Notes under the pieces: generated by a model
Database searches by the model: none
Told to the model about the DNA's origin: nothing
The model's input: the letters and a program-made list of their open reading frames with translations, nothing else
IMG/VR virus record: IMGVR_UViG_3300013094_000050
Coordinates: 1-62,206 of that record
DNA: 62,206 bases
Direction: 5' to 3' (one strand)
From: a virus
Lineage: Duplodnaviria; Caudoviricetes
Program-made: the position numbers and the translations under genes
Shown: piece by piece, positions 9,408 to 58,300 of the stretch
Numbering within the stretch: position 1 is the first letter of the stretch
Layout: each line of letters begins with the position of its first letter

Positions 9408-9435
9408 ATTGTAGTTATACAATATGAAATTTTTC

Positions 9436-32700: not shown

Positions 32701-35700
32701 TTAAGTCATATTGTAATGCATCAAGTATGTTGCTCAAATCGCGAACAGTTTCAGCTTGATTTGTAACTCCATACGATTGCCAAGTTGTACCACTTAACGT
32801 ATCATTCAGATAATTAATAATTTCGTCTTTAATAAACTGATAATTATTTTGAATTTGTGTTACCGCAGTACCAAATCCAACCAAATAATATGTATTATAT
32901 CCTGTAACTCGAGGAATATTAAATGCAGGTTCTTGTACAATACCAAGAGTAGTACCATAATTTGTATTATTTTGCACACCAGGAGTAATTGTCAATCCAT
33001 TTGCAAACATATTTTGTATGATTGCTGTATTATTAATTACTAAGTTTACTGCTGCTGGGTTACCAAAATCTCCAGTTTGTGCCGGTAATGTTCCTGCTTG
33101 TGTTGCTAATGCAGAAATATAATATGCAATATATTGAGTTGCACTTTGAGTTGCACTTAACTCAGTAGGAGATACTAAATGTTGTGCACTAGTTACATAC
33201 TTATAAAATGATCTGCCTGATACTAGCGTAAAATAATTAGAACCCAATAACATATCATAACTCAATGCATCAATTACTGTTCCAGCATCTCGATATGTTA
33301 ATGCAAGATTAGTAACATTATTAGGATATTGGGTAGCTACAAATGTTTGTATTTGTGTTTGTAAATAAGATCTTTGAGCTTGAATAGCGTTAAATGCAGT
33401 TAATACTGGTGCGGACACCCAAGTTGTACATGGTAAAACTGTTCCTGATAACCCAATACCGGTACTCAGGCTAGAACCGGTACCATTTGTACCGTTTACC
33501 CAGTTTATAATATTTCCAATCAATGCTTGTGTATAAGTTGCTGCATTTGTATATGTTCCAGATGTAACAACTGTTTGAGTTGCATTATTACCTGATGTTT
33601 TACTCCATGTAGTATTGCCATTTACAATATTAGGAATAATTGTTTGTAGTCGTGTCAATGCTGCAACAGATGCTGCTAATGTAGAAGCAGGAGTTAATGA
33701 TGCTACTCCTAACGAATAATATCCAATACCTTGTATTTGGCTTTGAGTATTACCGCCATAAATTATGTCGTATTGAATAGATTGTAGAATATATCCAAGA
33801 TCACGCAATGATTTCCCTTGATATTCAGCAGTTAACCCATTCCAACTAAATCCTGAACCAGTGTATCCGTTTAGATAATTTGCAATTTCAGTTTGCAAGA
33901 ATGTAATATTGGCAGCAATATTTGCCGCACCGTATCCGTATCCAGTAGTATCGCCAGTGGTATTACCTGTATAACCAGAAACTCCTAGTCCTGTAATTGA
34001 ATAGGCAGTATTTGTTAATGATGAGGTGTTATAGCCTGTTGGAGTTGTTGTAGTAAATGTTCCAATATTTGGAGTTGTTATACCGATAGTAAATGTTGCA
34101 CCTGTAGTAGTTGTTCCACCGATAGTCAATGGATTAGTGCTACTAAGAGCGTTTTGATAGGAAGCATATAACGTTGCAGTTGTTGCTGTACTAGTTGCTC
34201 CGGTGTAATAAATTGCATTAATTGTAGAACCAATTGCGGATATAGCTGTCCCGCCAATAGTCAGATTACCTGTAATTGCTGTACCTGAACTTGTTCTTGT
34301 TATAACAATGGCAGTACCTGCAGGTAACGCTACAGTTGTAGTCGAATATGATATACCAGTAGTACTATTGTTAGTAACAGATCCTAACGTTGTTTGAGAA
34401 ATTATTGTAGAATTTGGATTTCCAAATACAGGGCTATATGTTAGCCCGTTAGCTAAAATACCTTGTAATAACGTATTGTTATTAACAATAGATCCTACTG
34501 TTGCAGAATTTGCAATGTTGATAGTTGATCCAGATGCTCCAATTGGAGAACCTGCTGCATACCCTGCAACTTGTGTTCCTATATAGTTAATAGATTGCTG
34601 AGTAACAGCTAATTCAGGACCGCCTACTAAAGTTTCAGCAGAAGAAACAAGTCGATAAAACGCTCTTCCTGAAATCATACTATAATAATTAGATCCTAAT
34701 AATAAATCGTATGATAGTGCATCAACAATTGTTCCTGCATCGCGATAAGTTAACGCTAAATTTGAAACAACACTACCATAATTAGTCGAAACCCAATTTT
34801 TAACCCATGATTGAATTGCAACTTTATTTGCTTGAATATTATTAAATGCTGACAAATTAGAAGAAGGAACCCAAGAATAACAAGGTCGGATAGTACCCAC
34901 TGGATTAGAACTAAAACTATTTCCAGTACCATTTGTACCGTTTACCCAGTTAATAACTAATCCAACTAGAGCAGCTGCGTATACACCTGCGTTTGTTTGT
35001 CCTGCTGTACCTGTTGTAACTTGTGATGCAGTATTACCAGAAGTTTTTGTCCAACCTCCTGTATTAGCAGTAACAATATAAGGTATAATTGTCTGAATAC
35101 GAGTTAACATTCCAACTGTCGCGGCTTGGAATCCTGAAGTAATACTAGCAGAACCTAATGAATAATATGCTAAACCATCAATTTCACTTTGTGTGTTTCC
35201 ACCGTAAGTCATATCATAAATTATAGAATTTAACAAGTATCCAACATCACGCAATGTATAACCTTGATTAGCTGAACTCATTCCACTCCAAACTGATGAA
35301 TAAGCTGATGCCATATAGGCTGCAATTTCAGTTTGAATAAACGCAATATTTTGTGTAATTTGTGCAACGCCGGCGTCATAACCAACTGTTGATCCTGTTA
35401 CATTTCCTGAACAAGCATACGCAATATTTGATAATGTAGTTCCAAATCCTGTTGGAGTAGTTAAAGTGTATGTTCCTGTATTAGGAACTGTTACACTACC
35501 TCCGGTATACGTGATTGTAGATGTGCCTGCTCCTGGTAGTGCACTTAAACCGTTTGCTAAAATTGTTTGTATTAATGTTACATTAGTAGAAACAGTTTGT
35601 GTAAATGAAGAAAAAGGATTAGTTCCTAAATATTCTTGTACGACACTATTTGTTGATGTTGATATTACCGGAACATTGCTTGCGATTGCAGGCAATAACC

Positions 35701-38628: not shown

Positions 38629-41600
38629 TTACCACACCTGAGTCGATGTCTTATTCCACGCATTTCTGCCGAAGAAATCTAATGCTGCCATATTTCCGTC
38701 TACACCTTTCTTATTAATATATACTTTATTTGACATTTTTACCACTGACCCTGAAATTCCATTCGGTATACTTGATGCAATAAGATTTGGATTTCCAACT
38801 TCGACCGTACCTGCAATTAAATTACCAGTAAATGTGTTTGCACCACCTTGGCTTAATCTACTAGTTATGTAAGATTTAATGGCTTTCTGTGTTGGTAAAA
38901 TCGCATCTGAATTAGCTGTAAATGAAGGATCTGTACTAATTTGTGTGACTACTACACTACTACTTCCAACAGCTAATCCGCCTAAACTCAATGTATTCAA
39001 TCCAATCAATCCGAACTGTGTAGCACTAAGTGTAACAGTTCCAGTTGCTTGCTCTACCCCAAATAAACTACCAACTAAAAAGTTACCATTTTCATCTGTA
39101 CTTACATAGAATACGTGACCTTGGTTAACTTCAATTGCTTCGTTTTGAGGTAAAGCAGTTGATTCATCAACATTAGGATAATTTGTTGAATAATAATTAC
39201 CAACACCGATTGATAAGAAATCATGATTTGTTAATCGAACTTGGCTATACAACGCTCTGACTGTAAATTTAGTGCCGTTTGCCGGACTATTTGCATTTGT
39301 CACACTAGGCGATACTTGAATATTTGCTTCAATAAATGGTGCCACTGTTCCATATACTGCATATGCGCTAGTAACTTTGTAAATTTGACTAATACCGTCG
39401 ATGCTAATATTACTACCAACAACTGGTACAGATTGTAAATTATTACAAATAAGAGTATAACCTGTTTGATATGTATCGGCAAAACCATTTCCGCTAATCG
39501 TAACTGCTGTAGATGTTGTATTGTATCCAGTACCTCTATTTACAAAAGTAGGATTACTTAACACACCACTAGCAATTCTAGATTGCACTGAACATGATAT
39601 TTGTGCATTAAAATCGTAAAATGTTACAGTCGGAGACGGAGTTATTGTAACTAGTGTGCCTGATGCTGTTGCAGCTTGTGATATGACGATCGAAGATGCT
39701 CCTGTATTGACTGATAATATTGTAGAATTAATTGGTATACCTGTACCTGCAACTGTTAATCCTGCATACAATGTGCTAATATTTGTAATATGCGTAATTG
39801 TAGTAGAATTTAGAGTTAAGGTTCCTGTTACCGCCGATGGATAATTTGAACCAGTTTCCCATTGTGTAATTCTACTTATAACATTAGATGTTACAGTTGC
39901 TCGACCTTGAGGACGAATACCTTCTGATATTGTTGTAACACTTCCAGTTCCAGTTCCAGTTCCTGATAATGTTGGAAACACACCAACATTATTGGCATTA
40001 AATCCAAATCCTAATACACCTATACTACCATACGATAATGTTCGGTTATACCAGTAAACACCGCTATCACTTGAATACTCAGAAGTTCCTGAACTTTGTA
40101 CTGCAACAAATACTCCCTGACCATATGTTATACTATTAGCTGATAGGTATGTTAATCCTTGATACCAAGTTGCACCATCAAAACTATATGCCGGATACAA
40201 TCCAGTACCACTTTGGATAGCTACAAATCGGCTGTTACCCCAAGTAATACCGGTATAGTTTGGAACACCAGCAATTGCAAAATTTACTCCACTTGTAGTA
40301 CCAGCAACAGTAGTTATTTGTGTGAAAGTTGGATATGTAGATGACAATGTCATTTGTGTTGCGCCGTCTACTGTACTATAAATGTAATAAGTACCATTTG
40401 TTATAGTACCTGCACCGGTATTTTCTCCAGATACAACTACAGCCATTCCAGGCAATAACTGTATAGGACTTGCACTAATTGTAATACCGCCGGCAGAGTT
40501 ATTAATTGTAACTGTTGTGAATATTGTAGATGCTTGAGGCAACTGCCCAGCAACCCATGTATTTCCATCAGGACTTCTTGCAATAGTGCCGTCGCTTGCA
40601 ATCGCTAAGAATTGCTGATCTCCGTACACAAGACCGACCCATGCTTTATTTGTTAATAATCCAGTTGTACTTAAATTCCAACTATATCCAAAATTTGTTG
40701 AATATGCAGCAGGACCAGTAATTGTAACTACTGCCCATGCATTGCTAGTTACGCTATTACCAGAAATTGCAACCCAATTGCTTAATGCAGTGTTATACGC
40801 AGCATCAGCCCATTGTTGTGTGCTAGGCATCGATAATGGTTGCCAGTTAATTCCGTCAATACTAGTTGCTGCTGATTGTGATGGACTTGCTCCTGGATTT
40901 TGTGCTAAGAAATGTCCGTAACCATAACGAATATTTTGCCAATTTAGTACACTTGCGCCAGTTAACACAGTTGATGATGCTGAAATCCAATGAACTCCAT
41001 CTAAACTATATGCAGTATTTCCATTTTGGGCCAGTGCAACAAACACTCCGTTACCAAATGCAACGTTAGTCCAGATTGTAGTAAGAGGCAAAGTAGTTGC
41101 TACCCATGTTTGTGCTCCGTATCCTAGACTATATGCAGCAACATTACTTCCTAGTTGGCTGGTTCCAGTGACTGATCCTAGAACCGAAACTGTGTAAGTA
41201 CCAGTTAACGCAAATGTAAGACCTGCAACTGCGCAAGTTATTACGGTGAATGTTGTATTAACTGTATTCACAGTACCGCTAGTCGATGTGGGAGAAAATC
41301 CCGATAATGTAATAGTAGAACCAGGTGCAAAAGGTGCTATAGTTTGTGTAGCAAACCCTAACGTAGCTGTTCCTCCTGATACAGTGAATGATGTAGCGCT
41401 CAATGTTAACGGTACTTGGCCGCTAGATAATGCTACATATATTCCATTTCCAAAATCAATATCAGTCCATGCAGTAGTAGTAGGTAATGCATATGTTGTC
41501 CAAGATAAACCATTATTTGTACTAACAGATACTAGTGCTGTGTTTGATGCTACAGATACCCATGTACCTTGGCCGTTGTTAGTTACAGCATTAAATAGTC

Positions 41601-44600
41601 CTTTAGTAACTCCCATGCCGCCACCGTTGATCCAAGTCGTGCCGTTAGTAGTATATACACTAATACTTGCACCACTAGCAGCTTGACTAACTGCAACAAA
41701 TGTATTTGCACCGTATGTAATATCTAACCAAGTATAAGATGCACTTAACGATGGTCCAGTATTCCATGTAGTACCGTTGGTACTCCATCCAGTAGTTCCT
41801 GAACCTGAAATTGCAACGTAAATACCGTTGCCATATGCAATAGCTGTCCAATTTACAGTTGCAGGTGCTAGTTGTGCTATTGTACTCGCTTGTGTTACTT
41901 GGGTAGCTATAGTGACAAATCGGCCGTTGCCGTATGCAATCTTATTCCAAGAACCTGGATAATTTGCCGGTAAATTTGTAGTATGCCAACTAGCACCTGC
42001 TGCGTTTGAATATGCCGCGACACTAGTTCCTCCAGCTGTTGATCCTATTGCGATCCAATAAAAGTTTCCAAATGCTATACTGGTCCATGCAGTCACTGTC
42101 GAAGGCAGTGTATAACTAGACCAGGTGTTACCATCAGATGATTGAGCACCTGTTGACCCTGCACTTGGAATTGCTAAGAAATAATTATTTCCATATGCAA
42201 TTCCTTGCCATGTTGGCCCTCCAGTTAATGGTGTAGCCATAGTTCCTGTAACTTGAGACCATGATGGTAAACTATATTGCAATCTTGGTTCAACATAGTA
42301 TACAGATTGAGAATCTAATGCTATTGCAGTCGGGGTTCCTGGATTAAAGTTATCCCATCCGCAAGCACCCATCTGCATTGTTCCAGTTCCAGATATTAAT
42401 GTAATTGGAGTACCTGCAAGCGATGTGCTTACTAACAATGACGGAGTTGTTCCAGGAGTAATAGCTGTAATATAATATGTTGTATATGAATTAACACCAC
42501 CTAATAACGGTAATGAATATGTTCCTGTCATAGAACCAGTTTGTCCTATATTATTTGTTACAACAACTTTAGGTCCTGAAGTAGTAGCTGTCATAGTTCC
42601 GCTACCTCCACCTAGTACATAAGGTGATACACAAGTTCTTACATAAATTAATCCAGACGCATTAACTAATGATACAGGATTAACTCCATCAGACGATACT
42701 GTAATTTGGTTTGTTGCAGTATTAGTTGTTAAAATATAATAAACTGTTTCTCGTTGAAGACCTCCAAAAAATCCCCCTGATGTAAGTCCGCTGAATATAA
42801 TAGGTTGTCCAAGCACAAAATTGTTTACTGATGTTGATATTTGTATCAAATTTGTAGTAATTTGTGTAGATGTTGCTGTCGTCCTAATAATGCCTGCACT
42901 TGAAACAATTTGAAAATCAGTGGTATCGGGTATATTACTAATATAATATACTGTATTTGTTGTAATAGATGCATCAAAAGTTGTTCCTGTAAAAATTATA
43001 GGAGTCATTGGTACTAATGATGTTGTGGAAGTTGTTTGTATTGTGTTTGTTGCACCACCTATACTACCTGTCACAGTAATTGTTACCAAATTAGTAGATA
43101 CAGTAAAATTATTGCTATTTATAATATCGTTAACATAATAATATTGACCTAATGTTATTCCACCAACAGATACTCCAGTAAATTCAATTGGAATATTTGG
43201 AATCATATTTGTAGTCGATGCAATCAAATATCCAGAATAACTTGGGAAAGTTACAGTCATTGTAATACCTGCTGTGCTCAATACATTTGTTAACTGTACA
43301 GCATTACCACTGATGCCTGTTGCTATTTGTATATTATTTCCGGTTATATTAATGATATAATATACAAATCCTGGAGTAAGATTAAAACCTGCGCCTGTTA
43401 ACAATGTAAACACCACTGGCATATTAATAAACAATTGTGCAGCACTATTCACTTGAATAGTATTTGTAATACCACCAACAGTTGCAACAGCTACTACAGT
43501 TGCAACAGATGTTTGCGTAATTGTAGTATTGAAATAAGTAGGAACGAATCGAACTTGTTGGTTAACATATAATCTACTAATGTCAGTACCATTAGCTAAA
43601 AATAATAAATTTGCAGATGGTGTGGAACTATATGTTGTTTGAACAACATTTATTGTATCTACACTTTCTTTTAATACCAGCGCTGTTCTGCCAGGTACAT
43701 TATTTGCATCTTTAGTTGTACTTTTATTATAATATGCAATCCATCCATATTGGCCTGCTCCGGTTCCTGCTTGGATTAATACCCGCATATTTACATAATT
43801 GTAAACACCTGGATCAGATGCTGATAACTGGATCGATGTTGCATTTCCAGATTGTGCATTTCCGCTATTGGTTACATAACCAGATCCGCCAGTGTATCCA
43901 TTACTGTCTGTAATAATTCTAGTATTAAAGATTGATCCACTTCGAATTTCATCTCCTGACAAATTCGCATTATAGCCTGCACCAGTTACTTCATAATTTG
44001 CATATGCGGTATACATACCGTTAGTTGTTTCAAGATAAAAATCCGGAGCAGGTGTAGATCCTGATATTTCTATTTGAGATCCGTATATAACAGAATATGT
44101 ATTAGATATAGGAGCGTTTGCTCCTTGTGCAAAAAACTTATAAGTTAACGAAGTATTAAGTCCAGTTTTATCATTTACAGCAAACCAAACTCTGTACCAT
44201 CCTGCCGCCAAAGTTTTTTCTGCTCCGTAATACAAAGGCAAAGTTCCTGCATTAGTTGAATTTGATATATTTGTTCCTGCATACGGTGTGACTGTATTTG
44301 TGCCAGTATTATAACTGACACCACTTATAACTGTGCTAGAACCAGAAAATATTGCTTGAATATCAATAGTTTGAGAAGTGCCTGGATATACATACAAACT
44401 AAAAGTATAGTTCTGTGAAGTACCAGTAGGAACAATACCAGACGATGTTACAGTCACTAATGTTCCTACTAATATATTAGTAGAACTAGTTGTAGAATAA
44501 GTTCCTATATATTGTAGTGTAACATTACCACTTGTTACATTCTGTGCAAGAGTAGGTGGTGTTATACCAAATGTTCCAGTACTAGTTGCCAAGTAATAAT

Positions 44601-47600
44601 TTGAAGTTCCTGCTACTGGATTATAATAATAATAGTAAGTACCAGATGTTGCAGACCCATTGGATGTCCAAACAGGCATTGTAACTGTTGCTACTACAAG
44701 ACTACAATCATTAGTTCCTGCTTGTCCGCCTAGAGTTGTACCTGAAATTAATAAATTATTTCCAACTTGATAAAGTTGACCGCCTGATGCAACAGCTGGA
44801 ACATATCCAGAAGGTGTAACAGTTATATTAATTGTTGCGCCATTTCCTGCTCCCGTTATAGTTGAGGGAGATAATGCTGAATAATAGTAGCCTGTTGGAT
44901 TTATTCCGACAGTTTGTTGAATATATCCTGTACCTGCCGTGTTAGTTGCACCTGTTATCAACCATGCTTCGGTAAATCCTGTCGGTGCAATTTCGTTTTT
45001 AATAAAAGAAACATTACCGTCATTTGACCAAGGACTTGTAACGAATGAGTTTGATTGCGCAATCATGTTAGTTGCTGGTAAGTAGTAATTTGATCCTGCA
45101 TTAATATAATTTAATTTAATTAACTGATTAGCAGTACCAAACGCATCCGACACACTAGCTTGAACTTGTTGACTTTGATTAAAAATTGTACCAGTTCCAG
45201 GTATTTCAGTAGTGTCGTAACCCCAACTCAGTACACCAAATGTACCGTAAGAACTATTACCGTTTGTAGAACGAATTCGCCCACCGTTTTCTGCAAAGTG
45301 ACCGATATAATTATAGTATGAGAACACCGATACACACTCAGAAAGCGCACCAGGGCCAGTAATATATACACCAATACCGTCACTTAAAACTTGTGTATAA
45401 TCGTTATGCAACATTGATTTATTGCCGCCATTGTGCAATGTTCCATCTACTTTCGTACCAACACATCCTGTTCCAAAATTAGTGACATTTTGCATGTAAG
45501 GGCTACGACGAATTATCCATACAGTAGAATCGTCAGGTCCTGTTCCTGGATTTAGACTTGTATATTTTCCGCCCGTTGGTCTAGATATACCAAATTGATC
45601 TTTTGCTGACAACATGCCTAACAATCCAAAATTAGATAAGTTACGCATTGTTGTACCGTTTGTCATGTACCACATGTCTTTTAAGCAGTCTCCTGCATAA
45701 CATAACATATTACCAGTGCCTCCGGCTAATATTACAACAGTACCAGAAACGCTAAATGATTGTAATATGCCAGATGCTGTCGCAGGAGATGATATTGTAA
45801 CGGTTGATATACTGCTAATAGCTTGAGAAAATGCTGTAATTATGGTGTTAGCGGGAATACCAGGGCCTGTAATTGTTAAACCGACTTTCAAATTAGAAAT
45901 ATTGCTTACATTCGAGAGCGTGGTACTTCCTGATACCGATGTACCTATTATTACCTGTGTAGGTGCATTTAATATTTGAAATCCAGTTGATGTTATAGAT
46001 GAACCTAATATGTAATAAGTTTGTCCTGGTGTTATATTAACTTCAAAAGATGTATTTGCATTATTAACATAAGGAGAAATAAATTGTATCGGCATTTGAT
46101 CTGTTAAACCAACTGTCGTTGTAACTGTAATTGTATTAGACCCTGCAGCGGTTTGTGTTGCATAAAATTGATAGCTTGTAGCAGGTTGTACTGCTACTCC
46201 ACGCAATTCGTCGCCGACTATTGACAAATTTTCTGGGACAACAATAGGTAAAATTTCACTGTATGTTCCAGTTTTAATATATAAAATTGCAGTTAAACCA
46301 GTATTACTTGCAGGTACAAGGTAAGTATTTAGATTTGTTAATGCCGTAAGTGGTATGTTCATTAATGTTGTAATTTCTAAATTAACCCCGTTTTCCGCAG
46401 TTAACGATTGATTAAAATTTTGATTTATAACATTAGTACCAGTTATACCATTCAATGTTTGATAGCTAGCTGGAGGTGCTACTTGATTAACTGCTGCAAT
46501 CATCAGTGATTCCAAATAGGTTAATGATGGAGCAAAATAAGCAATAGAAGATTCAACAATATTATTGACTAATTGAGTGCTACTTCCGTAATAAAACCAG
46601 CGTAAAGTTGCAGCAACAATTTGACTATTTCCTCCGCGTTGCATATCATAAACAATAGCGTCAATTACATATCCAGCATCACGCTGTGTGTAGAATGGAT
46701 CAAATAAACTAGCTGTACTGAACGGAGCAATGTTATTATTGCATTGATACAACATCCATTGATACATTTCTGTAATCATCCACGCTTTATTTGCTTGAAG
46801 TAACGCAGCTGCATTTGAAAAATAAAGACCTTTTGCGACATAATTACAAGAATATTTTATAGTTTTCCAAGGAGTATCCCAGCTAGTACCATGAGAAGCA
46901 TCATCCACACCTAAAAATGTATCTACATAATAGGTAACAGGAATAACATTTAATTTTTTCCAATTTGGTACATTTACATTAACTGCTAAATCGTAAGATG
47001 TTGTTCCGATTGGAATGCGTGTGTATTGGGGACCATTTGCCGCTACGAATGTTTCTAAATCGCCTTTAGTATTCATAGCGTTGTTTAAGTCGTGCGTAAT
47101 ATAAACTGCCCAATAGGTGTGTGTAGTATCGACGGCAGGATCAATATTTGAATTATTTTGAATACATCTATACGTTGTATTTGTACGGATTGCTAAATCG
47201 CCTACTACATATGAAGTACTCGAATTCCAAAAACTTTTCCATTGTTTTCCTAGAATTAATAATGACCATGATGTGGATACTCCTATGAAATTAAGAGTTT
47301 GCCCGTCGACTGGGGTACCGTCTGGTCCCATATCTAAAATTGCTGTTGTACTATTTGAAATACTAGAAACCGTTTGTCCTATCGAAAACCCGACTCCATT
47401 TACAATCATACCAGGTACTAGTTGTAATGCACTTACTAACACTAATGTAGTTCCTGAACTACCTGCTGCTGAATAGATTGCAGATACATCACCGGTTGAT
47501 GGGTCTGTAGTATTATTAGCGGTAGCTTCATAAAGACGTCCATTACGATTAACAACATCACCTGTTAAATAAGTTGTACCTGGAAACCAATTTCCTTTAA

Positions 47601-48435
47601 TTCTAAATCCAATATTAAATTGAGACCAATCTGTAGAATCTACACTAGGAATATTTCCAGTATTATTTGCAGATCTGCTCACGTATGCGGTGCCGCCGTA
47701 AACAACTGCATCACCTATTTGATAATTTATTGAAACAGACCAAATCAAATCAGTGCTTTCACCTGGCAAATACAACGCCCAATTTGATGTATTAAATGTA
47801 AGTCCGCTGGTAAATCCAGCGGAATTAGTAGCAATATAAATGTTAGCATCTAATTTTACAAGATCATTAAGTTTATATCTATAATTTTGTTGCCATGCTC
47901 CTAAATATTGAACACCATTAAAGTAAACTTGCCATGCTGATTGATTTGCCTCTAACCCTAATGCAGATGTTGTAGCAGATGTATGTGCAACTTGACATTT
48001 ATAAGTTATGCCACCATAAGTTGCCAATTGACCTGGAGAATATATTGTATTTGGTAGCCATGGGCCTGCCCATGTTTCGTTACTTAAATATATTGCCCAA
48101 TCACCGTTATTAAAATCAGTCAAGAACACTGAGCTAGTATTAGGACTAGTACAAATATAAATACTGCCATTATATGTAACTAAATTATTTAGGCTGTACA
48201 CAGTCCCAGTTGTCCATGTTCCTGCCCAAGATTTTCCTGAAGTAATTTGAATCCAATAAGGGTTCGGTGTAGCATATAAATCGGTATAAAAATTTGAACT
48301 CGATGTATTTCCTACTAAACAAGCAAATGCTTGTCCTTGATACTCTACCACACTATCTTGAATAAAAACAGTATTAGGAGCCCAGTTACCGGCCCAACTA
48401 TATCGTAATTTACTAATCTTAAATTCTGCTGACAT
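38629..48435 (-). CDS. Giant virion structural/fibre protein (3268 aa), paralog of 23768..38578
   Basis: Shares the AEFK start, CBM-like repeats, LHNGGN.SM..NDYTQVLSDGIG, TNGNSSYGT.G and HDFL.IG...STDENGNF. Confidence 0.88.
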   Translation of the reverse strand: MSAEFKISKLRYSWAGNWAPNTVFIQDSVVEYQGQAFACLVGNTSSSNFYTDLYATPNPYWIQITSGKSWAGTWTTGTVYSLNNLVTYNGSIYICTSPNTSSVFLTDFNNGDWAIYLSNETWAGPWLPNTIYSPGQLATYGGITYKCQVAHTSATTSALGLEANQSAWQVYFNGVQYLGAWQQNYRYKLNDLVKLDANIYIATNSAGFTSGLTFNTSNWALYLPGESTDLIWSVSINYQIGDAVVYGGTAYVSRSANNTGNIPSVDSTDWSQFNIGFRIKGNWFPGTTYLTGDVVNRNGRLYEATANNTTDPSTGDVSAIYSAAGSSGTTLVLVSALQLVPGMIVNGVGFSIGQTVSSISNSTTAILDMGPDGTPVDGQTLNFIGVSTSWSLLILGKQWKSFWNSSTSYVVGDLAIRTNTTYRCIQNNSNIDPAVDTTHTYWAVYITHDLNNAMNTKGDLETFVAANGPQYTRIPIGTTSYDLAVNVNVPNWKKLNVIPVTYYVDTFLGVDDASHGTSWDTPWKTIKYSCNYVAKGLYFSNAAALLQANKAWMITEMYQWMLYQCNNNIAPFSTASLFDPFYTQRDAGYVIDAIVYDMQRGGNSQIVAATLRWFYYGSSTQLVNNIVESSIAYFAPSLTYLESLMIAAVNQVAPPASYQTLNGITGTNVINQNFNQSLTAENGVNLEITTLMNIPLTALTNLNTYLVPASNTGLTAILYIKTGTYSEILPIVVPENLSIVGDELRGVAVQPATSYQFYATQTAAGSNTITVTTTVGLTDQMPIQFISPYVNNANTSFEVNITPGQTYYILGSSITSTGFQILNAPTQVIIGTSVSGSTTLSNVSNISNLKVGLTITGPGIPANTIITAFSQAISSISTVTISSPATASGILQSFSVSGTVVILAGGTGNMLCYAGDCLKDMWYMTNGTTMRNLSNFGLLGMLSAKDQFGISRPTGGKYTSLNPGTGPDDSTVWIIRRSPYMQNVTNFGTGCVGTKVDGTLHNGGNKSMLHNDYTQVLSDGIGVYITGPGALSECVSVFSYYNYIGHFAENGGRIRSTNGNSSYGTFGVLSWGYDTTEIPGTGTIFNQSQQVQASVSDAFGTANQLIKLNYINAGSNYYLPATNMIAQSNSFVTSPWSNDGNVSFIKNEIAPTGFTEAWLITGATNTAGTGYIQQTVGINPTGYYYSALSPSTITGAGNGATINITVTPSGYVPAVASGGQLYQVGNNLLISGTTLGGQAGTNDCSLVVATVTMPVWTSNGSATSGTYYYYYNPVAGTSNYYLATSTGTFGITPPTLAQNVTSGNVTLQYIGTYSTTSSTNILVGTLVTVTSSGIVPTGTSQNYTFSLYVYPGTSQTIDIQAIFSGSSTVISGVSYNTGTNTVTPYAGTNISNSTNAGTLPLYYGAEKTLAAGWYRVWFAVNDKTGLNTSLTYKFFAQGANAPISNTYSVIYGSQIEISGSTPAPDFYLETTNGMYTAYANYEVTGAGYNANLSGDEIRSGSIFNTRIITDSNGYTGGSGYVTNSGNAQSGNATSIQLSASDPGVYNYVNMRVLIQAGTGAGQYGWIAYYNKSTTKDANNVPGRTALVLKESVDTINVVQTTYSSTPSANLLFLANGTDISRLYVNQQVRFVPTYFNTTITQTSVATVVAVATVGGITNTIQVNSAAQLFINMPVVFTLLTGAGFNLTPGFVYYIINITGNNIQIATGISGNAVQLTNVLSTAGITMTVTFPSYSGYLIASTTNMIPNIPIEFTGVSVGGITLGQYYYVNDIINSNNFTVSTNLVTITVTGSIGGATNTIQTTSTTSLVPMTPIIFTGTTFDASITTNTVYYISNIPDTTDFQIVSSAGIIRTTATSTQITTNLIQISTSVNNFVLGQPIIFSGLTSGGFFGGLQRETVYYILTTNTATNQITVSSDGVNPVSLVNASGLIYVRTCVSPYVLGGGSGTMTATTSGPKVVVTNNIGQTGSMTGTYSLPLLGGVNSYTTYYITAITPGTTPSLLVSTSLAGTPITLISGTGTMQMGACGWDNFNPGTPTAIALDSQSVYYVEPRLQYSLPSWSQVTGTMATPLTGGPTWQGIAYGNNYFLAIPSAGSTGAQSSDGNTWSSYTLPSTVTAWTSIAFGNFYWIAIGSTAGGTSVAAYSNAAGASWHTTNLPANYPGSWNKIAYGNGRFVTIATQVTQASTIAQLAPATVNWTAIAYGNGIYVAISGSGTTGWSTNGTTWNTGPSLSASYTWLDITYGANTFVAVSQAASGASISVYTTNGTTWINGGGMGVTKGLFNAVTNNGQGTWVSVASNTALVSVSTNNGLSWTTYALPTTTAWTDIDFGNGIYVALSSGQVPLTLSATSFTVSGGTATLGFATQTIAPFAPGSTITLSGFSPTSTSGTVNTVNTTFTVITCAVAGLTFALTGTYTVSVLGSVTGTSQLGSNVAAYSLGYGAQTWVATTLPLTTIWTNVAFGNGVFVALAQNGNTAYSLDGVHWISASSTVLTGASVLNWQNIRYGYGHFLAQNPGASPSQSAATSIDGINWQPLSMPSTQQWADAAYNTALSNWVAISGNSVTSNAWAVVTITGPAAYSTNFGYSWNLSTTGLLTNKAWVGLVYGDQQFLAIASDGTIARSPDGNTWVAGQLPQASTIFTTVTINNSAGGITISASPIQLLPGMAVVVSGENTGAGTITNGTYYIYSTVDGATQMTLSSTYPTFTQITTVAGTTSGVNFAIAGVPNYTGITWGNSRFVAIQSGTGLYPAYSFDGATWYQGLTYLSANSITYGQGVFVAVQSSGTSEYSSDSGVYWYNRTLSYGSIGVLGFGFNANNVGVFPTLSGTGTGTGSVTTISEGIRPQGRATVTSNVISRITQWETGSNYPSAVTGTLTLNSTTITHITNISTLYAGLTVAGTGIPINSTILSVNTGASSIVISQAATASGTLVTITPSPTVTFYDFNAQISCSVQSRIASGVLSNPTFVNRGTGYNTTSTAVTISGNGFADTYQTGYTLICNNLQSVPVVGSNISIDGISQIYKVTSAYAVYGTVAPFIEANIQVSPSVTNANSPANGTKFTVRALYSQVRLTNHDFLSIGVGNYYSTNYPNVDESTALPQNEAIEVNQGHVFYVSTDENGNFLVGSLFGVEQATGTVTLSATQFGLIGLNTLSLGGLAVGSSSVVVTQISTDPSFTANSDAILPTQKAIKSYITSRLSQGGANTFTGNLIAGTVEVGNPNLIASSIPNGISGSVVKMSNKVYINKKGVDGNMAALDFFGRNAWNKTSTQVW

Positions 48436-52100: not shown

Positions 52101-55100
52101 TCCAGTTTGTGTTAATGTACCAGTAATACCAACTGCTTGTAATGATGTTGTACCAGATGTAACTGTTAAATTATTACTAATTGTTACATTTTGATCGACT
52201 TGAACATTGTTGCTAGGAATATATACACGACCTGTTCCATTTGGTACTAATTGTAAATCTGAATTGCTAGATGCGGTACTTATAGTGTTACTATTAACTG
52301 TAACATTTCCGATATAAGCAGAATTAAAATATGCATTATTCCAATTTAGTGAACTTGTACCTAAATCATACGCTGAAGTCGTTGCAGGAATTAAATCACT
52401 GTTAATACCAGCAACAAAGTTAACAGTATCGGAAGTTTGATTACCAATAGTAATATTTCCGCCGATAGTAGTGTCTCCAGTTACACTTAAATTACCGGTT
52501 ATATATGTATTATTTTGTAAATTAATATGGCCACTTGCGGCAGTAACATTTATATCTCCTGTTACGCTTTGTATTGTATTACCGCTAATTTTAATATTGC
52601 CAGTATCTATTTCTCCTGGTAATATACTAGTTGTATGTACACCATCTGTAAATGTTACTGCTGTAGCAGTAGTAATCGAAAGAGCTTGGCCGTTGAAAGT
52701 AACTATTCCAGTTTTTTGATTTACTGAAAAATATTGACCTACGTTAAATTGTCCAGCATTGTCAACAGCCGTATAATAAATTTCAGCACCATTGACTTGA
52801 GTGATTTCGTTAGCAACAATTTGAGTCGACGGATCATCTGTAGATAATAGTCCAGATCCAATATAAGAAAAATTATGGCTAACTAGATATGCTTTAACGC
52901 CTTGGCCGTCGCCCCATATACCATAATTGCCAAAACTAAATGCAGACCCAATGATACGCATTTCGACACCGAAATCGCTATAGTCGGCAAAATTAATAAT
53001 GCTTGCAGTACCACCTGCACTTGTTCTTAAATTTTGCTGAGTATATCCGTCGTCTACAAATACAGTTGATCCGTTGGTGCCATCAAAATGCAACATTAAT
53101 ACTGTATTGGTATCTGAAGTTAATGCAACCGAAGACGGAGTAAAGTTTGTAGTATATTTTGCAACACCTTTTTCAATTCTTAAATCGTCGATGTATCCGC
53201 CCAACGGAAGAGTTGCGTTATAACGTGCACCGATAACTAACGGACCTTGAATATATGTATTATTGTCAGTATACGTACTACCGCTTTGTGTTCCATTAAC
53301 AAACATTTTGGTGCTTGTGCCAGATTTGGCTATAGCAATATGTGTCCAAGTGTTCAGAGGGACAGCGGCAGAACCAGTAACCATTGTATTGCCCGCACCC
53401 CACGCTATAATTGGAACATACGTAGCAGACAAATAAACTACTAAACCTACATCGGTACTAGTGTTTCTTAAATCAGCAAGATATTGAATAGCGCCGGCGT
53501 TGCCAGTTCTGTAGACCCACATTTCAATAGTCCAAGCACTTGAACCAAACGCAAAATCTACATTAGTTGGAATTGTAGCGTAATCAGTTGTGCCATTCAA
53601 TGCTAAACTTGCTGTTCCAAATTTCTTAACACTAGCTGATAGGTTGGCACCGCCCTGTGCGTATACAGTTTTGCCAGGGCGATCTGTAATTGTTTGGAAG
53701 CCTAGATGTCTTCCATTTATGTATACGTATTGTCCGCTGATACTGCTAATAGTACCAGATGCTAAAACAGTCACACCGTCTGTATCGTAGTATGTTAATG
53801 TATTACCTACTGCCCATGTTCCAATTTGAGAATTAATTCTTAATTTTGTTCGGCCTGCTCCTGCAAACCCAGGTGTACTTGAATAAAGATAAACAGCTCT
53901 GTTAGCAAAGTATGTAAAACTATTAACCCATTCCATACGAACACCGTTAGTTGCTGTTATAGCATCTTGATTAGGTATAAAAAATGTAACGCCATGGAAT
54001 AACATACTAGCACGTAGACTAGCTGAATTAACTACACTACCATCAGCAAACACACCTTTACCAGCATCACCTTGATTAAATCCGTAAGGATCTCCTGAAC
54101 TGGTTACACTACCTCTAGTGATAATTGTTAGATTTCTAATGTAGGGGCTGCGTGTTGTTGTTAAAAAGTTATTAGCAAATCTGAATCCATAACCAGTATT
54201 TGCACCGCTATTGTATAAAAATCCTGTTAATGTGAAATCTTCAAGAGTAGTTTCTCCGTTTAATAAAAACGCATCATTAGATTTAGTACCGGCAGTTGGT
54301 TGAATAATAACTGCTCGAATTCCAGTTCCACGTAATGTAACACCTTCGGGAACTGTTAATGGGAATATTTCTGAATAAGTTCCTGGATACACATAAACAG
54401 TAGTTCCGCTAGTAGCAACACTCAATGCATGTGCAATAGTTAAAAATGGATTATTTTCATGCACTCCAGCATTACTATCACTACCAGTAGTTGATACGTA
54501 TATAATATTACCTTGAGGCAATACCAAATTAATACCATTAGCAGTAATAGTAGATGTTGTAAGACTACTGGTGTTTACTGTGTTTACATAAGCATTTGCC
54601 CATGCTAAACTGTTTGATCCTAAATCATAGTGGTTGTTTTGATTTGGAATGATACTGCTAGCAACTTCTGCATCAAAAGTAACTGTGTCGGTACTAGCAT
54701 TACCTAATGTTATATTACCATCTGCGGTAATATTGCCAGTAGCATGTAAATCTCCAGTTACTAGAACATTGCTGTTTAAGTTAATTACACCAGAACCGTT
54801 AGCGGTAATATTAATAGCACCATTAGTGTTAGTTGCACTAATTGTATTTCCAGTTAAACTAAGATTGCCAATGTCAGCAGTGCCTTGATACACTACAGCG
54901 CTTGAACCATTGGGTGTTAAATTAATTGTTGAATTTGTACTGGAAATTGTACTACCAGAAATTGTAAAAGTTCCGATAGTTGAAGATGTACTTGCGTATA
55001 AATTGGTAGTACGAGTAGTGCCGTTTATATCTAAATCATATTGTGGTGATGCATTTTTAATGCCCACGCGGCTGTTTACAACATCTAAGTAAAGTAAGTT

Positions 55101-55178
55101 CGTCTCAAAGGCTAAATCAACCCCATTGCGAAGGAGGTTATCCTTTAAGAGCGGACCCGAAATTCGACCAACAGCCAT
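49179..55178 (-). CDS. Large tail-fibre-like protein (1999 aa) with a beta-helix-like domain, two LamG/ConA-like domains and 96-aa repeats
   Basis: GRISGPLL start; YVS..GSD.N.G motif; WTIEMWVY...WTHIAIAKSG...GYIDDLRIEKG LamG-like domain; G.IRYN...EGY C-terminal motifs. Confidence 0.85.
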   Translation of the reverse strand: MAVGRISGPLLKDNLLRNGVDLAFETNLLYLDVVNSRVGIKNASPQYDLDINGTTRTTNLYASTSSTIGTFTISGSTISSTNSTINLTPNGSSAVVYQGTADIGNLSLTGNTISATNTNGAINITANGSGVINLNSNVLVTGDLHATGNITADGNITLGNASTDTVTFDAEVASSIIPNQNNHYDLGSNSLAWANAYVNTVNTSSLTTSTITANGINLVLPQGNIIYVSTTGSDSNAGVHENNPFLTIAHALSVATSGTTVYVYPGTYSEIFPLTVPEGVTLRGTGIRAVIIQPTAGTKSNDAFLLNGETTLEDFTLTGFLYNSGANTGYGFRFANNFLTTTRSPYIRNLTIITRGSVTSSGDPYGFNQGDAGKGVFADGSVVNSASLRASMLFHGVTFFIPNQDAITATNGVRMEWVNSFTYFANRAVYLYSSTPGFAGAGRTKLRINSQIGTWAVGNTLTYYDTDGVTVLASGTISSISGQYVYINGRHLGFQTITDRPGKTVYAQGGANLSASVKKFGTASLALNGTTDYATIPTNVDFAFGSSAWTIEMWVYRTGNAGAIQYLADLRNTSTDVGLVVYLSATYVPIIAWGAGNTMVTGSAAVPLNTWTHIAIAKSGTSTKMFVNGTQSGSTYTDNNTYIQGPLVIGARYNATLPLGGYIDDLRIEKGVAKYTTNFTPSSVALTSDTNTVLMLHFDGTNGSTVFVDDGYTQQNLRTSAGGTASIINFADYSDFGVEMRIIGSAFSFGNYGIWGDGQGVKAYLVSHNFSYIGSGLLSTDDPSTQIVANEITQVNGAEIYYTAVDNAGQFNVGQYFSVNQKTGIVTFNGQALSITTATAVTFTDGVHTTSILPGEIDTGNIKISGNTIQSVTGDINVTAASGHINLQNNTYITGNLSVTGDTTIGGNITIGNQTSDTVNFVAGINSDLIPATTSAYDLGTSSLNWNNAYFNSAYIGNVTVNSNTISTASSNSDLQLVPNGTGRVYIPSNNVQVDQNVTISNNLTVTSGTTSLQAVGITGTLTQTGDFTQTSGNFSTTGTINSGAITSTGTLTLPDVTISGSTITGTTTATNLTLTPYSGKAVEITSDATLDGNTTVGGTLSVTGTSTLHAVGITGTLTQTGDFTQTSGNFSTTGTINSGAITSTGTLTLPDVTISGSTITGTTTATNLTLTPYSGQQVEITSDATLDGNTTVGGTLSVTGTSTLHAVGITGALTQTGDFTQTSGNFSTTGTINSGAITSTGTLTLPDVTISGSTITGTQSGTNLQIAAYSGQQVEITSNATLDGNATVGGTLSVTGTSTLHAVGITGALTQTGDFTQTGNFSTSGNVTVNGDLSVSGEWTIGNIIIAPPGSPSTITTSTTNSNLILTGNGTGSVVIEGLSVTSNTIASTITNSDITLTPQGTGSVIINSNQSLQVPAGTTLQEPSSPANGMIRYNTDHNRYEGYSNGYWTNLGGVQSVNGQTYITPESSPGAGNNVLSFYAGNTLTATIDSTKLYATNFETSQLSITGNNISALSSNTDINFTTSGSGGVQVGNLLFNGNSITNTATNAVTLFTNTSASNSSFQGTIASQPSNTFTGSISGNILTVSSPPGSLFGGSISFDGSTNYLNMSPGFGVGGIAYTIEFFFYTSSTGTQTILGAGAGGYSLSISSSSVDVQYVGGTTNSYAVSFATNTWNHLVIVRNSSLIETVFINGVRSTSGAITNNLNYGSNTTTIGASLSGTNLFSGELTNLRIVIGTSVYDPTTTTITVPTGPLTAVTGTAILLLASNSANDLIDTSNNETVSQAGSGNVSYSNLSPFGTSGTGLAVGDSLSGSGITPGTYIVSNISGTGTSSSSSWTININYVSAITNETVTSTPVLLTVTSVISGSVTIGNTISGSGITTGTIITAQVSGTTNGLGTYYVTPPQNVPYSTVVTEAAGSGYVQIGGSYGVVIPVGNTTNYPAFQYTETGMMRFNNDPNYMYVEIYNGTSWASVAGAASGVTTSQATDIALGIVLSLG
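51210..52145. repeat. 288-bp (96-aa) tandem repeat, about 3.2 copies
   Basis: TTACATCAGGTAATGTTA recurs at 51431, 51719 and 52007. Confidence 0.93.
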
Positions 55179-55304
55179 TTACGCTCCCGTATACCCCGTG
55201 TTTCACGGTTAACCTAGTTTGGGATTGCCCCGCATCCTTTCGGCTCTTTGTCGGTTTACCACAGTTTAATATCGTAAAAACTTGGTCAGTCTTTACAGTA
55301 TTAG
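55179..55304 (-). ncRNA. Candidate structured cis-regulatory 5' leader RNA
   Basis: About 54% GC over 55181-55260 in an AT-rich genome; short stems CC-GAAA-GG, GGG-GCAA-UCC and CCGUG-AAA-CACGG next to the GGGAG RBS. Confidence 0.5.
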
Positions 55305-55312
55305 TATTTAGC
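55305..55312 (-). promoter_or_regulatory. Late promoter GCTAAATA
   Basis: TAAATA core immediately after the upstream stop, defining a leader of about 120 nt. Confidence 0.62.
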
Positions 55313-55320
55313 TGTTTTGG

Positions 55321-58300
55321 TTAGAACCCTAATATGATACTATATATTTCGACTATTGATGCAACTTCGTCTGATGAAATTGAACTACTTGTGCCGTATG
55401 CTTCTACCCATGCTGATCCTGTAAATACTTCAAGAGTAGCTAGTGTCGTGTTGAATCGAGTAGTTCCTGCTGGTGGATTATACGGTCGGTTAACTGAACT
55501 TCCGCTAGGAATAGTTATACCGTATGTACCTCCAAATTTTACATGTCCTTGGCCGGTGCTATTAATTGATAATGCGCCCGATGAAGGAACATATATATTA
55601 TTAACTTGCATACCAGTTCCGTTAAAATAAACAGTTCCAGACGTATTAATATTTGTATTTGTAGATGTATTAAGATTTTCAATTGTATTACCAGATATAC
55701 TTATATTTCCGGCATACATTGTATTATTAGTTAATGCCGTAGAAGTAATTGTTGTGGTGACTGTTCCGTTAATACCAAATCTTAATGTGTTATCCGCTGA
55801 ACCACGTGTTAATTCTGGAGTTATATAAGTTAATTGATTTTGGCTATACAGATTAATAAAATTTACGTATCCAGTATTGTTATAACCTTCTATGTTGTAA
55901 GTTAAATCGTTAAATCTAATTTGTCCGTTAGTTGTTAATACATCTAAACTATCGTCGCTGACTGGTATTTTTAAGCTAGTCGTTGCATTTATTGTAACAT
56001 TGCCAGTTCCCGACGGCGATAAAATAATGCTTTTTTGTAAAGTTGTTGGAGTAGGGTGAGTAGTTTGACTAACTGAATATGACTGCCCAGGTTGAAATAC
56101 AGCGCCCCCACTAGCTGTTATACTTACATTATTTCCTGCAATAGAAGTCGAAGTAACATAGGTATTAGCAGACATTCCTGGACCTGTAATATACCAAGTA
56201 CCGATACTGTAGTTTGCTGCGTAATAATCCCAACCTGTTTGGCTATGATTCAATACTTGAGAAAATATACTTGTATTTGATGCAATAAGATTAGAATTTA
56301 ATTCACTAGAAGTGGTGTTAAGTCCACTTAATGTTCGGGCAAATGTATTTGTTATAGAGCTATTATTAAAACTTAAATCTTCAATAAGAACATTACCGGT
56401 TCCGTTACCATTGAAGGTAATATTGTGTCCAGTTATTGAATTAGTAATCGTACTATTGTCAAAATTAAATTCGCCAATATTAGTGTATGTACCATATACA
56501 TACAAATTACCACCTGTAGTAGTTAACTTACCATTAATAATACTGTTGCCAGTTTGATTAAAATCCCCAGTCTGTGTTATGGCGACGGATGTGACATCAT
56601 TTGAAAATGTTGTTAATCCAGAAGTAACTGCTAATGTTCCACTAATAGAAACATTATCATTAAATTTTGCACTAGTTATTTCTACATTATTGCCAGCCGG
56701 AGATGTCAATTTTAAGTTTGTATTAGTAATTCCAGAAATTACACTACTATTAATTTCAATTGTTGGTAATATTAACGGATTGGCAGCAGTTATGTTGCCT
56801 ACATTAGTTATTGCTCCTAATGTAGCATTACCGGTAATATTATAACTACCACTTTGTGTAATCGCTCCGGATGTGACATCATTTGAAAATGTTGTTAATC
56901 CAGAAGTAACTGCTAATGTTCCACTAATAGAAACATTGTGATCAAATTTAGTAGCTCCAGTAACTTCGACATTTTTTCCGGTATACGGAGTTAACTTTAA
57001 GTTACTTCCGGACACTAGCCCTAATATTGTACTGTTATTAATTTCAACTGTTGGTAATATTAACGGATTGGCAGCAGTTATGTTGCCTACGTTAGTTATT
57101 GCTCCTAGTGTAGCATTGCCGGTAATATTATAACTACCACTTTGTGTAATTGCTCCGCTAGTAACATCACTTGAAAATGTTGTTAGTCCAGATGTAACAC
57201 CTAATGTTCCGCTAATAGAAACATTGTGATCAAATTTAGTAGCTCCAGTAACTTCGACATTTTTTCCAGTATATGGCGTTAATTTTAAGTTACTGCCGGA
57301 CACAAGTCCAGTAATTACAGTGCCGTTAATTTCAATTGTTGGTAATATTAACGGATTGGCAGCAGTTATGTTGCTTGCATTAGTTATTGCTCCTAATGTA
57401 GCATTACCGGTAATATTATAACTACCACTTTGTGTAATTGCATTAGAAGTTGTATTTTTTAGACTAGTTGTACCATTTGTAGTTAGCGCTTGCCCAATTG
57501 TTAAATTGTTATTAATTTGTACATTTGCATTAGGTACATAAATTTTGCCTGAGCCATTTGCCGTTAAACGCAGATCGGTATTGGTAGTAAGGGTGGAAAT
57601 TGTACTGCCAGTAATCTGTGTAGTACCTGTAATATCGATTAGCTGTGCATATAAATTTCTCCAAATATATGAACTAGATCCTAAATTAAACGCATTATTT
57701 GCATCAGGTTTTATTGTCTGTGTAAGATAATCGACAATTGTTACTGTATCGTATGCTTGTCCGCCTAATGTAAGATTTCCATCGATAATAACATTTTCAG
57801 TTATTGCTAAATTTCCAGTTATTGCTACATTAGTATTCAATGTAGTAGTACCACTATATGCTAAGAAATTAGTATTACCTGCTAACGAATCTATATTGTT
57901 ATCATGTATACGAATATTAGCAATTATAATATCAGCTGCTTCTATTAAAGTTTGTCCGTTTAACCCTTCAAGTGAAATACTTCCGTTTGCAGCAAAATTA
58001 AGTGTCTGTGCATTGAATGTAACTGTACCATTTTGTTGATTAACGTAAAAAATATCACCTATTCGATAATCACCAATTTGATCAACACTGTCATAGTATA
58101 TTGTTCCACCGTTTATAGCAACAACTTCATTAGCTTGAATTACTAAAGATTCGTCGTCGCTAGTATCTGCACCAGTGCCAACATATCCAAAATTATGTCC
58201 TACAATATGCCCTAATGTATTGGCACCGTCGGCTACAACTCCATATGTTCCAAACACATTGGCGCTGTTTATAGTTCTTAACTCGGCGCCAAATTTAACT

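Follow-up and report, generated by a model that had tools for sequence, protein, structure and literature searches.

A gap of 142 nucleotides (nt) in the uncultured virus record IMGVR_UViG_3300013094_000050 of IMG/VR (positions 55179-55320, minus strand) encodes a conserved, strand-specific structured RNA at the mRNA 5' end of a baseplate wedge gene of uncultured T4-like myoviruses. The whole record of 62,206 b was analysed and is called the window below. The gap lies between the stop codon of an open reading frame (ORF) of 1442 amino acids (aa) and the ATG of an ORF of 1999 aa. The leader RNA encoded in it consists of a 5'-terminal hairpin (P1), an H-type pseudoknot of two crossing helices (S1 and S2) and a further hairpin (P3) in front of the Shine-Dalgarno motif. 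This structured leader RNA is real and widespread and had not been described before; base pairs of both pseudoknot helices are replaced by other base pairs in related phages, and that this structure exists is virtually certain in our view.

The gap had been singled out in an earlier note on this DNA. The transcript quoted there is exactly the minus strand of 55179-55312, and the gap is indeed the longest in the window among ORFs taken as genes, followed by gaps of 107 and 76 nt. The GC enrichment that had been described was confirmed, although not the figure of about 54%: the core from the pseudoknot to P3 (55188-55263) has 51% GC, the whole gap 43% and the window 36.4%. The late promoter-like TAAATA box, the ribosome binding site GGGAG and the CCGUG/CACGG hairpin are all present. 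Folded as a single sequence, the leader reaches a minimum free energy of -42.4 kcal/mol compared to -30.0 +/- 3.3 kcal/mol for 200 shuffled sequences, none of which is as good (z = -3.74).

Homologous leaders were collected by protein and by DNA searches. With the first 300 aa of the 1999-aa product as query, a first protein search yielded 35 IMG/VR loci with 17 distinct leaders, which are alike from the promoter box to the ATG and in which compensatory changes are visible. A DNA pattern derived from the core matched at least 120 IMG/VR stretches, and in 119 of the 120 listed an ORF with the peptide G-R/Q-I-S/T/P-G starts within 110 nt, while one is cut off. Because this pattern fixes part of S1 and S2, the invariance of both in the loci obtained with it (L037-L156) is given by construction, and the protein-derived set is the unbiased one. 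A profile of nine N-termini gave at least 584 relatives among at least 600 pattern matches, and the best 80 loci were used. In GTDB genomes the same profile found 13 loci, all on contigs of metagenome-assembled genomes (MAGs).

The covariance model R1 is based on 87 short-form cores. In the window it finds one copy (55176-55268, 55.7 bits, E 4e-13) and no second one. It detects the motif in 80/80 protein-derived viral loci, where the orthologous product starts with M-A-V/I-G-R-I-S/T-G, and overall in 93 of 100 sources; those without a match (L242-L248) comprise a divergent marine lineage, its paralogs and one truncated locus. When R1 was run on both strands of 100 pattern-derived loci (908 kb), each contained one copy and no other hit at E <= 1.

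Pairing was evaluated in an alignment of the protein-derived loci (A4, 81 distinct rows), which was fitted to S2 and P3 and not to S1, and in a MAFFT alignment that is gap-free over the core and was fitted to no structure (A3). In A4 all three pairs of S1 are formed in 79/79 sequences: the outer pair is U-A in 67, A-U in 8 and C-G in 4, the middle pair is always G-C, and the inner pair is U.G in 71, C-G in 4 and U-A in 4. The U.G pairs are valid on the mRNA strand only. In S2 the closing N:N' pair reads C-G in 49 sequences, A-U in 16, G.U in 8, G-C in 4 and U-A in 1 (unpaired in 1); a further position is A-U in 70, G-C in 7 and U.G in 1, and another is A.A in 56, U-A in 14 and C-G in 9. Altogether, four pairs of S2 covary. 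The covariation score of A4 is 0.262, compared to 0.114 +/- 0.006 for shuffled alignments (reached in 0/500) and at most 0.144 when the partners are slid, and A3 gives the same picture. In a blind scan by mutual information with average product correction, the closing pair of S2 comes out on top, then the outer pair of S1, and pairs of S2 and P3 come next. A FastTree tree was computed from 780 nt of coding DNA downstream; on it the outer pair of S1 requires 11 or more changes of state and the N:N' pair of S2 22 or more. Conservation and covariation in homologous leaders, whose absence the earlier note had named as one outcome that would speak against its proposal, are therefore clearly present and strong.

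S1 comprises 3 bp and S2 6-7 bp with one bulge. As their strands interleave, and each helix covaries, the fold is an H-type pseudoknot. No nucleotide lies between the S2 5' strand and the S1 3' strand, and none between S2 and P3, an abutting arrangement that would favour coaxial stacking. The GG of loop 1 occurs in every row of A3, of A4 and of the raw MAFFT alignment A1. P3 keeps its pairing across the variants CCGUG/CACGG, CGGUG/CACCG, GGGA/UCCC and GGCA/UGCC. Automated folding was less informative: RNAalifold on A1 returned only fragments with a hint of S1, because P1 and the loop 3 inserts are misaligned there, and an unconstrained search for the best pseudoknot pairings was noisy. Instead, an anchored parse was used, which gave 137 distinct cores after removal of the paralog L086 and of the mis-registered L158, L163 and L238; in the latter three the motif is found by the covariance model.

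Of the 137 cores, 86 have a short loop 3 of 7 nt (AUGYAAG type); in the others it measures 16-45 nt, owing to one or two inserted capped hairpins whose stems covary among relatives. The GNRA-capped stems of the earlier note are thus real, with two in the window, but dispensable, since 86/137 cores lack them. Without inserts the leader measures about 65 nt. On the 3' side the architecture is tightly spaced: in 102/137 cores, 16-17 nt separate the end of P3 from the start codon, and a GGAG-type motif follows 5-7 nt past P3 in 115/137.

T4-type late promoters have a TATAAATA-like -10 box that is read by gp55, and transcripts start a few nucleotides downstream. The TAAATA core of the box in front of the leader is invariant in 17/17 leaders of the first protein search and occurs no more than 90 nt upstream in 118/118 pattern-found loci with enough flank (at least 120 listed). 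No sigma-70-type promoter was found in the gap, and no terminator-like site in 54900-55700. P1 starts about 8 nt past the box, which we take to be at, or within a few nucleotides of, the expected T4-type late start. Its stem sequence is variable with pairing retained, and it is lacking in a few relatives (L133, L143, L150, L156). The distance from the box to the pseudoknot varies from 10 to 43 nt and is set by P1, with 39-41 nt in 89 loci and 10 nt where P1 is missing. Within intergenic gaps of the window, only one other late-promoter-like box occurs, a perfect TATAAATA at 3783 (minus strand) that lies 13 nt upstream of a 448-aa tail-tube-like gene (start 3770).

The loop of P1, (U)GACCAA, is complementary to UUGGUC(G) in codons 3-5 (Val/Ile-Gly-Arg) of the 1999-aa ORF, and both sides vary together. 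In 145 distinct combinations of leader and coding sequence, 137 read GGTC at Gly4 plus one nucleotide, of which 104 carry GACC in the loop region of P1. Four read GGAC, three of which (L205, L107, L216) have GUCC in the loop, and the remaining four read GGAA with neither GACC nor GUCC. GACC was never combined with a non-GGTC codon (0/8), nor GUCC with GGTC (0/137). The flanks of loop and codon co-vary as well (GACCG/CGGUC, GACCUA/UAGGUC, GCGACC/GGUCGC). The loop and the 14-nt stretch that holds this codon segment have 6 or more consecutive complementary nucleotides in 94/135 leaders, compared to 3.4% of 7179 control windows from the same genes. The Gly4 codon is GGT in 137 and GGA in 8 cases; for Gly8 of the same genes the counts are GGT 121, GGG 14, GGC 7 and GGA 3.

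Table 1. Features of the leader, listed from 5' to 3' on the transcript, and of the genes around it (window coordinates)
Feature	Position	Strand	Remarks
T4-type late-promoter-like box CTAAATAC (core TAAATA)	55304-55311	-	Invariant in relatives; putative promoter
P1, 5'-terminal hairpin	55274-55296	-	Arms 55289-55296 / 55274-55281; loop UGACCAA 55282-55288
P1-pseudoknot linker	55264-55273	-	
S1 5' strand UGU	55261-55263	-	Partner 55249-55251
Pseudoknot loop 1, GG	55259-55260	-	Invariant
S2 5' strand UAAACCG	55252-55258	-	Partner 55209-55214 + 55216
S1 3' strand ACA	55249-55251	-	
Pseudoknot loop 3, 32 nt here	55217-55248	-	Two inserted capped hairpins
Loop 3 insert hairpins	~55232-55246 (GAAA loop); 55221-55231 (GCAA-type loop)	-	
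S2 3' strand U-(A bulge)-GGUUAA	55209-55216	-	
P3 hairpin CCGUG-AAA-CACGG	55196-55208	-	Directly 3' of S2
Shine-Dalgarno GGGAG	55184-55188	-	In 17-nt spacer
Start codon AUG	55176-55178	-	
Codon 3-5 segment UUGGUCG (+8 to +14)	55165-55171	-	Complementary to P1 loop
Leader-bearing gene, 1999 aa	49179-55178	-	Predicted gp7/VrlC-type baseplate wedge protein with Laminin_G_3 domain
Upstream paralog, 1442 aa	55321-59649	-	N-terminal GRISGPLL domain in common; without own leader
3268-aa ORF	38629-48435	-	Tail-fibre PHROG 9851 match, N-terminal few hundred residues only
4936-aa ORF	23768-38578	-	Tail-fibre PHROG 9851 match, N-terminal few hundred residues only

Other pairings and identities were tried and rejected. 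A helix between CUGUG (5') and the CACGG of P3 is possible in the main clade and broken in L003/L181. Pairing of the P1 loop with the GGUU of S2 was discarded, as the loop covaries with codon 4 and not with S2. A leader peptide starting in loop 3 (AUGUAA or AUGCAAGG) has neither a conserved ORF nor a Shine-Dalgarno motif; the 7-nt loop 3 often reads AUGUAAG, a start-stop pair, with the variants ACGUAAG and AUGCAAG. Scans with Rfam 15 (4227 models) gave no family at gathering score on the whole window, no match at E <= 10 on 55100-55400 and none in the leaders of L177, L249, L239 and L217; five related loci yielded nothing but a glutamine riboswitch outside the leader of L242 and a snoRNA match by chance (E 8). 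The leader was likewise not matched by the manA and wcaG motifs, both of which presumably have Rfam models. The resemblance to the c-di-GMP-I riboswitch (GEMM-I, RF01051) suggested in the earlier note was not borne out by its covariance model, neither in the window nor in the relatives, and without a match even at E <= 10 it is attributed to chance. The leader shares only short words with it (GGUAAACC, GAAA, GCAA). The architecture of c-di-GMP-I riboswitches is built from two helices docked by a tetraloop and its receptor, whereas the leader is an H-type pseudoknot whose GNRA-capped stems are optional inserts. No account of this element turned up in a full-text literature search by core words and by combinations of the topics baseplate, pseudoknot, leader and riboswitch. 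PMC2864571, PMC5737381 and the Minerva preprint of 2026 contain no baseplate-linked motif in their available main texts, although their supplementary motif lists could.

The gene behind the leader had been labelled a fibre gene. However, homology makes gp7/VrlC-type baseplate wedge protein the more fitting name: the 1999-aa product matches the PHROG 'baseplate wedge subunit' phrog_13163 with E 7e-202 and three more such PHROGs, contains the Pfam domain Laminin_G_3, and is about 40% identical over residues 144-898 to a cyanophage (cyanomyovirus) 'baseplate wedge initiator' (tblastn). According to the available part of PMC7029224, this initiator is a VrlC-type substitute for T4 gp7, and the tail-fibre/host-recognition cluster comes after it. 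An AlphaFold2 model of the N-terminal 150 aa, based on a nine-sequence alignment, had a predicted local distance difference test score of 54.5 and thus low confidence. The 1442-aa and the 1999-aa ORFs both match 'baseplate wedge subunit' PHROGs and share the N-terminal ...GRISGPLL... domain. Of these two adjacent giant paralogs only the downstream one is preceded by promoter box and leader, and related phages have up to three such paralogs. Behind the 1999-aa gene follow ORFs of 110, 127, 3268 and 4936 aa. The co-directional cluster, from 55178 down to 23768 (about 31 kb), thus consists of the 1999-aa gene and tail-fibre-type giants without any gap above 50 nt. The two giants of 3268 and 4936 aa match a tail-fibre PHROG, and the idea that the leader sets fibre stoichiometry or choice found no support.

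The window has a CheckV completeness of 17% and a T4-like myovirus gene set with tail sheath, tail tube, sheath stabiliser and head closure genes, in addition to genes for a deoxynucleoside monophosphate kinase, a carbamoyltransferase and a 2OG-Fe(II) oxygenase. DNA endonuclease V (PHROG 274) is matched by two separate genes, 8892-9422 (minus strand) and 15783-16406 (plus strand). Related contigs reach 356 kb (L185) and 266 kb (L025), which together with the low completeness suggests that the clade includes jumbo-sized genomes. Near-identical DNA is present in lake and freshwater metagenome runs, and relatives also occur among marine-type contigs.

The leader is specific for this gene and this clade. 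No leader was found in front of 16 paralogs that share the N-terminal peptide and whose genes start directly behind the preceding one. In 50,697 records of cultured phages neither the leader (blastn) nor the N-terminal 150 aa (tblastn) were detected, and the N-terminus of a marine homologue gave only four weak partial matches there. In the isolate cyanophage ACG-2014f the homologue is preceded only by a late-promoter box and a simple hairpin. In the marine MAG contig L242 the leader of the baseplate gene is divergent and was undetected by R1; UGU...GCA is retained and another S2-like pairing is possible. This contig also carries a glutamine riboswitch (RF01739) at 9-54 (plus strand, 50 bits, E 5e-9) before a 77-aa ORF, which ends just ahead of the late-promoter box of the homologous baseplate gene.

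Contigs from four metagenome runs were also inspected. Three of the runs are RNA-labelled (one recorded as RNA, two probably DNA) and one is DNA, and their contigs provide no readout of strand or expression. A 315-nt contig of the recorded-RNA run covers 55044-55274 of a relative, where DNA carry-over is possible. Two adapter-joined contig ends fall inside P1; contigs cannot show transcript starts. The summed contig depth of the four runs peaks over 55044-55322, i.e., the leader and the N-terminal coding block, and variant contigs over this region diverge on both sides. The segment is hence common to many co-occurring phage genotypes and may be a recombination patch.

As to function, the earlier proposal of an undescribed cis-regulatory RNA holds in so far as the leader is conserved, covaries and lacks an Rfam match; a riboswitch-like character is improbable, as no classical expression platform was seen in 54900-55700 or in A3 and A4. 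We favour a cis-acting translational control element, perhaps a protein-bound operator, and give this reading an even chance. It is suggested by three properties taken together: the fixed distance between P3 and the AUG, the free distance between promoter and pseudoknot, and the clamp between loop and codons. With the 16-17 nt spacing, the stack of pseudoknot and P3 lies at about -18 and further upstream. This is the region in which structured operators occupy the platform of the 30S subunit, and the stack would dock there in the same way. The helix between the P1 loop and codons 3-5 would close Shine-Dalgarno and AUG into a loop, a topology that resembles the 'entrapment' operator of rpsO/S15, in which the ribosome can bind but is held until the structure opens. 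A trans-acting factor could stabilise the closed form and throttle initiation; candidates are a late or assembly protein of the phage, possibly the product of the gene itself, or the ribosome. The result would be a tuned output of the baseplate initiator that heads the baseplate and tail-fibre cluster of about 31 kb. The 5'-terminal P1 probably also shields the long mRNA from 5'-end-dependent decay.

Several observations weigh against translational control by such a clamp. Shine-Dalgarno and AUG are not sequestered by any helix conserved in A3 and A4, and the position of the leader in front of an operon of 31 kb is equally compatible with roles in transcription. Of the 137 GGTC leaders, 33 have no GACC in the P1 loop, including the whole clade with a UGCC...GGCA hairpin and the few without P1, so that the kissing helix is not universal, unlike the pseudoknot and P3. 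Gly4 stays GGT in the clades without GACC too, so its invariance is partly a matter of codon bias. Phylogeny is ignored by the Fisher test on loop and codon (p = 2.4e-5), and the switches from GACC to GUCC represent only about two independent lineages (L205/L107 and L216). On the side of the structure, the numbers of events on the tree may be too high owing to mosaicism of the phages, yet the events are clearly multiple, and the shuffle controls do not consider phylogeny.

A more far-reaching form of translational control is less likely than not, and we put it forward only tentatively. Here the leader of this uncultured T4-like clade would be a molecular switch, in which the pseudoknot binds a trans-signal and gates ribosome entry via the 'kiss' between the 5' loop and codons 3-5. 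The signal may be an assembly intermediate, free baseplate protein, or a small molecule of host or phage.

Among the explanations that do without control of initiation, a role mainly as mRNA stabiliser is unlikely, although some of the architecture would suit it: the 5' hairpin and the compact pseudoknot would block a 5'-end-dependent RNase on the long late transcript without any switching. P1 lies close to the presumed late start, the pseudoknot itself comes within about 10 nt of the box where P1 is missing, and the genes downstream are huge (1999, 3268 and 4936 aa). However, a generic stabiliser needs no invariant loop nucleotides, no exact spacing of 16-17 nt between pseudoknot and AUG and no loop complementary to codons 3-5, and isolate cyanophages manage with a simple hairpin at the same place.

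We consider it improbable that the pseudoknot is the aptamer of a riboswitch for a small molecule or second messenger, whose ligand-bound state alters initiation at the nearby ribosome binding site. In favour of it, the compact core is strongly conserved and covaries, some of its unpaired nucleotides are invariant (GG of loop 1, A-rich loop 3), and it tolerates variable hairpin inserts, as many aptamers do. H-type pseudoknot aptamers such as preQ1, SAM-II and others exist. Related phages do carry riboswitches, with that of L242 lying about 350 nt upstream of the homologous gene; glutamine riboswitches are also described for Melnitz-like phages in the available part of PMC9004378. On the other hand, the leader matches no Rfam family even at E <= 10, and the lack both of a terminator in 54900-55700 and of a conserved anti-Shine-Dalgarno or alternative helix in A3 and A4 leaves no classical expression platform. 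The only candidate for an alternative pairing, CUGUG/CACGG, fails in L003/L181, the Shine-Dalgarno motif lies outside the pseudoknot, and a structural gene of the virion offers no metabolic logic for a ligand.

In phage HK022 (put) and in Bacillus (EAR), structured leaders close to the promoter of a long operon act as antiterminators. A comparable transcription-level element, which would modify RNA polymerase for processive antitermination across the cluster of about 31 kb, would be placed directly behind the only promoter-like box heading this co-directional cluster, whose internal gaps are at most 50 nt. We rate this distinctly improbable, since the leader is tightly spaced to the start codon and not to the promoter, part of the structure uses codons 3-5, which would be melted by ribosomes, and no terminators are predicted nearby (searched in 54900-55700).

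T4-type phages shuffle genes via promoter/stem-loop cassettes (PeSLs). That the region is merely such a homology patch at the DNA level, i.e., a cassette plus N-terminal block for swapping host-recognition modules without any RNA function, is very improbable: many related genotypes in the metagenome contigs share just 55044-55322 with different flanks, and hypervariable fibre genes adjoin (PMC7029224, available part), but neither compensatory double substitutions that keep crossing helices paired, nor G.U pairs valid on one strand only, nor the loop/codon switch are predicted by it, and it could be an additional role instead of an alternative.

As an RNA family the leader is new. Pseudoknotted 5' leaders that act on initiation are known as a type of element from T4 gene 32 and from rpsO, and the leader differs from both in position, partner gene and double-knot topology. 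For rpsO (S15) the mechanism is that a hairpin loop pairs just inside the coding region, with Shine-Dalgarno and AUG in the connecting loop. The topology of the E. coli rpsO operator is the same as that of the P1 loop with codons 3-5, whereas the loop-codon helix of the leader spans about 110 nt, encloses a second, independent pseudoknot as well as P3, and is absent in some clades. Both pseudoknot operators, as well as the RNA structures at the initiation regions of T4 genes 25, 38 and e, are treated in the available part of PMC3014915. There the gene 32 pseudoknot is placed 67 nt upstream, with cooperative binding of gp32 along an A+U-rich tract. The likeness to this operator, by which gene 32 of T4, T2 and RB69 is autogenously repressed at translation, consists in the T4-type phage and the proposed action on initiation. 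A pseudoknot is present in the leader too, but 16-17 nt with a GGAG motif lie between P3 and AUG, and there is neither an A+U-rich tract nor UUAAA repeats. The gene 32 product is a single-stranded DNA-binding protein, whereas the gene of the leader codes for a late structural baseplate protein. The two leaders have no sequence similarity, and the leader has no Rfam 15 match, although it was not checked whether the operator is a member of Rfam.

The split ribosome binding sites of T4 genes 25 and 38 and the hairpins of gene e and I-TevI are likewise RNA structures at late or baseplate initiation regions linked to late promoters. As far as the available text goes, these are single hairpins between Shine-Dalgarno and AUG, or they sequester the ribosome binding site in early transcripts; in the leader the Shine-Dalgarno-AUG spacing is normal and the site is unsequestered. 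The available part of PMC2864571 describes the manA and wcaG motifs as candidate cis-regulatory RNAs, mainly from aquatic metagenomes and T4-like phages. In T4-like cyanophages these precede, according to the same partial source, metabolic or exopolysaccharide and high-light genes, in contrast to the leader, which is tied to one structural gene. HK022 put and Bacillus EAR share with it the promoter-proximal position at the head of a very long operon, but here the spacing is to the start codon and codons 3-5 are involved.

The leader is a new RNA family in hundreds of uncultured aquatic T4-like phages, with a covarying pseudoknot of textbook quality. Rarer still, one of its loops has its pairing partner in codons of the gene itself, where a synonymous substitution accompanies the change in the loop. 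To our knowledge, structured cis-regulatory RNAs are rare in phages, and we know of almost none for virion structural genes. The gene 32 pseudoknot is called possibly the sole viral pseudoknot for translational autoregulation in the available part of PMC3014915. If the leader did act as a switch, it would be the first RNA operator of a phage structural/host-recognition operon, T4-type phages would have just one other known pseudoknot operator of translation, and synthesis of the baseplate initiator and the host-recognition module would be coupled to virion assembly or to the state of the infected cell. In metagenomes the leader can serve as a specific nucleotide marker for this phage clade. 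As it heads the baseplate and tail-fibre (host-recognition) cluster, its mechanism bears on how the balance and timing of giant structural proteins are set in large phages.

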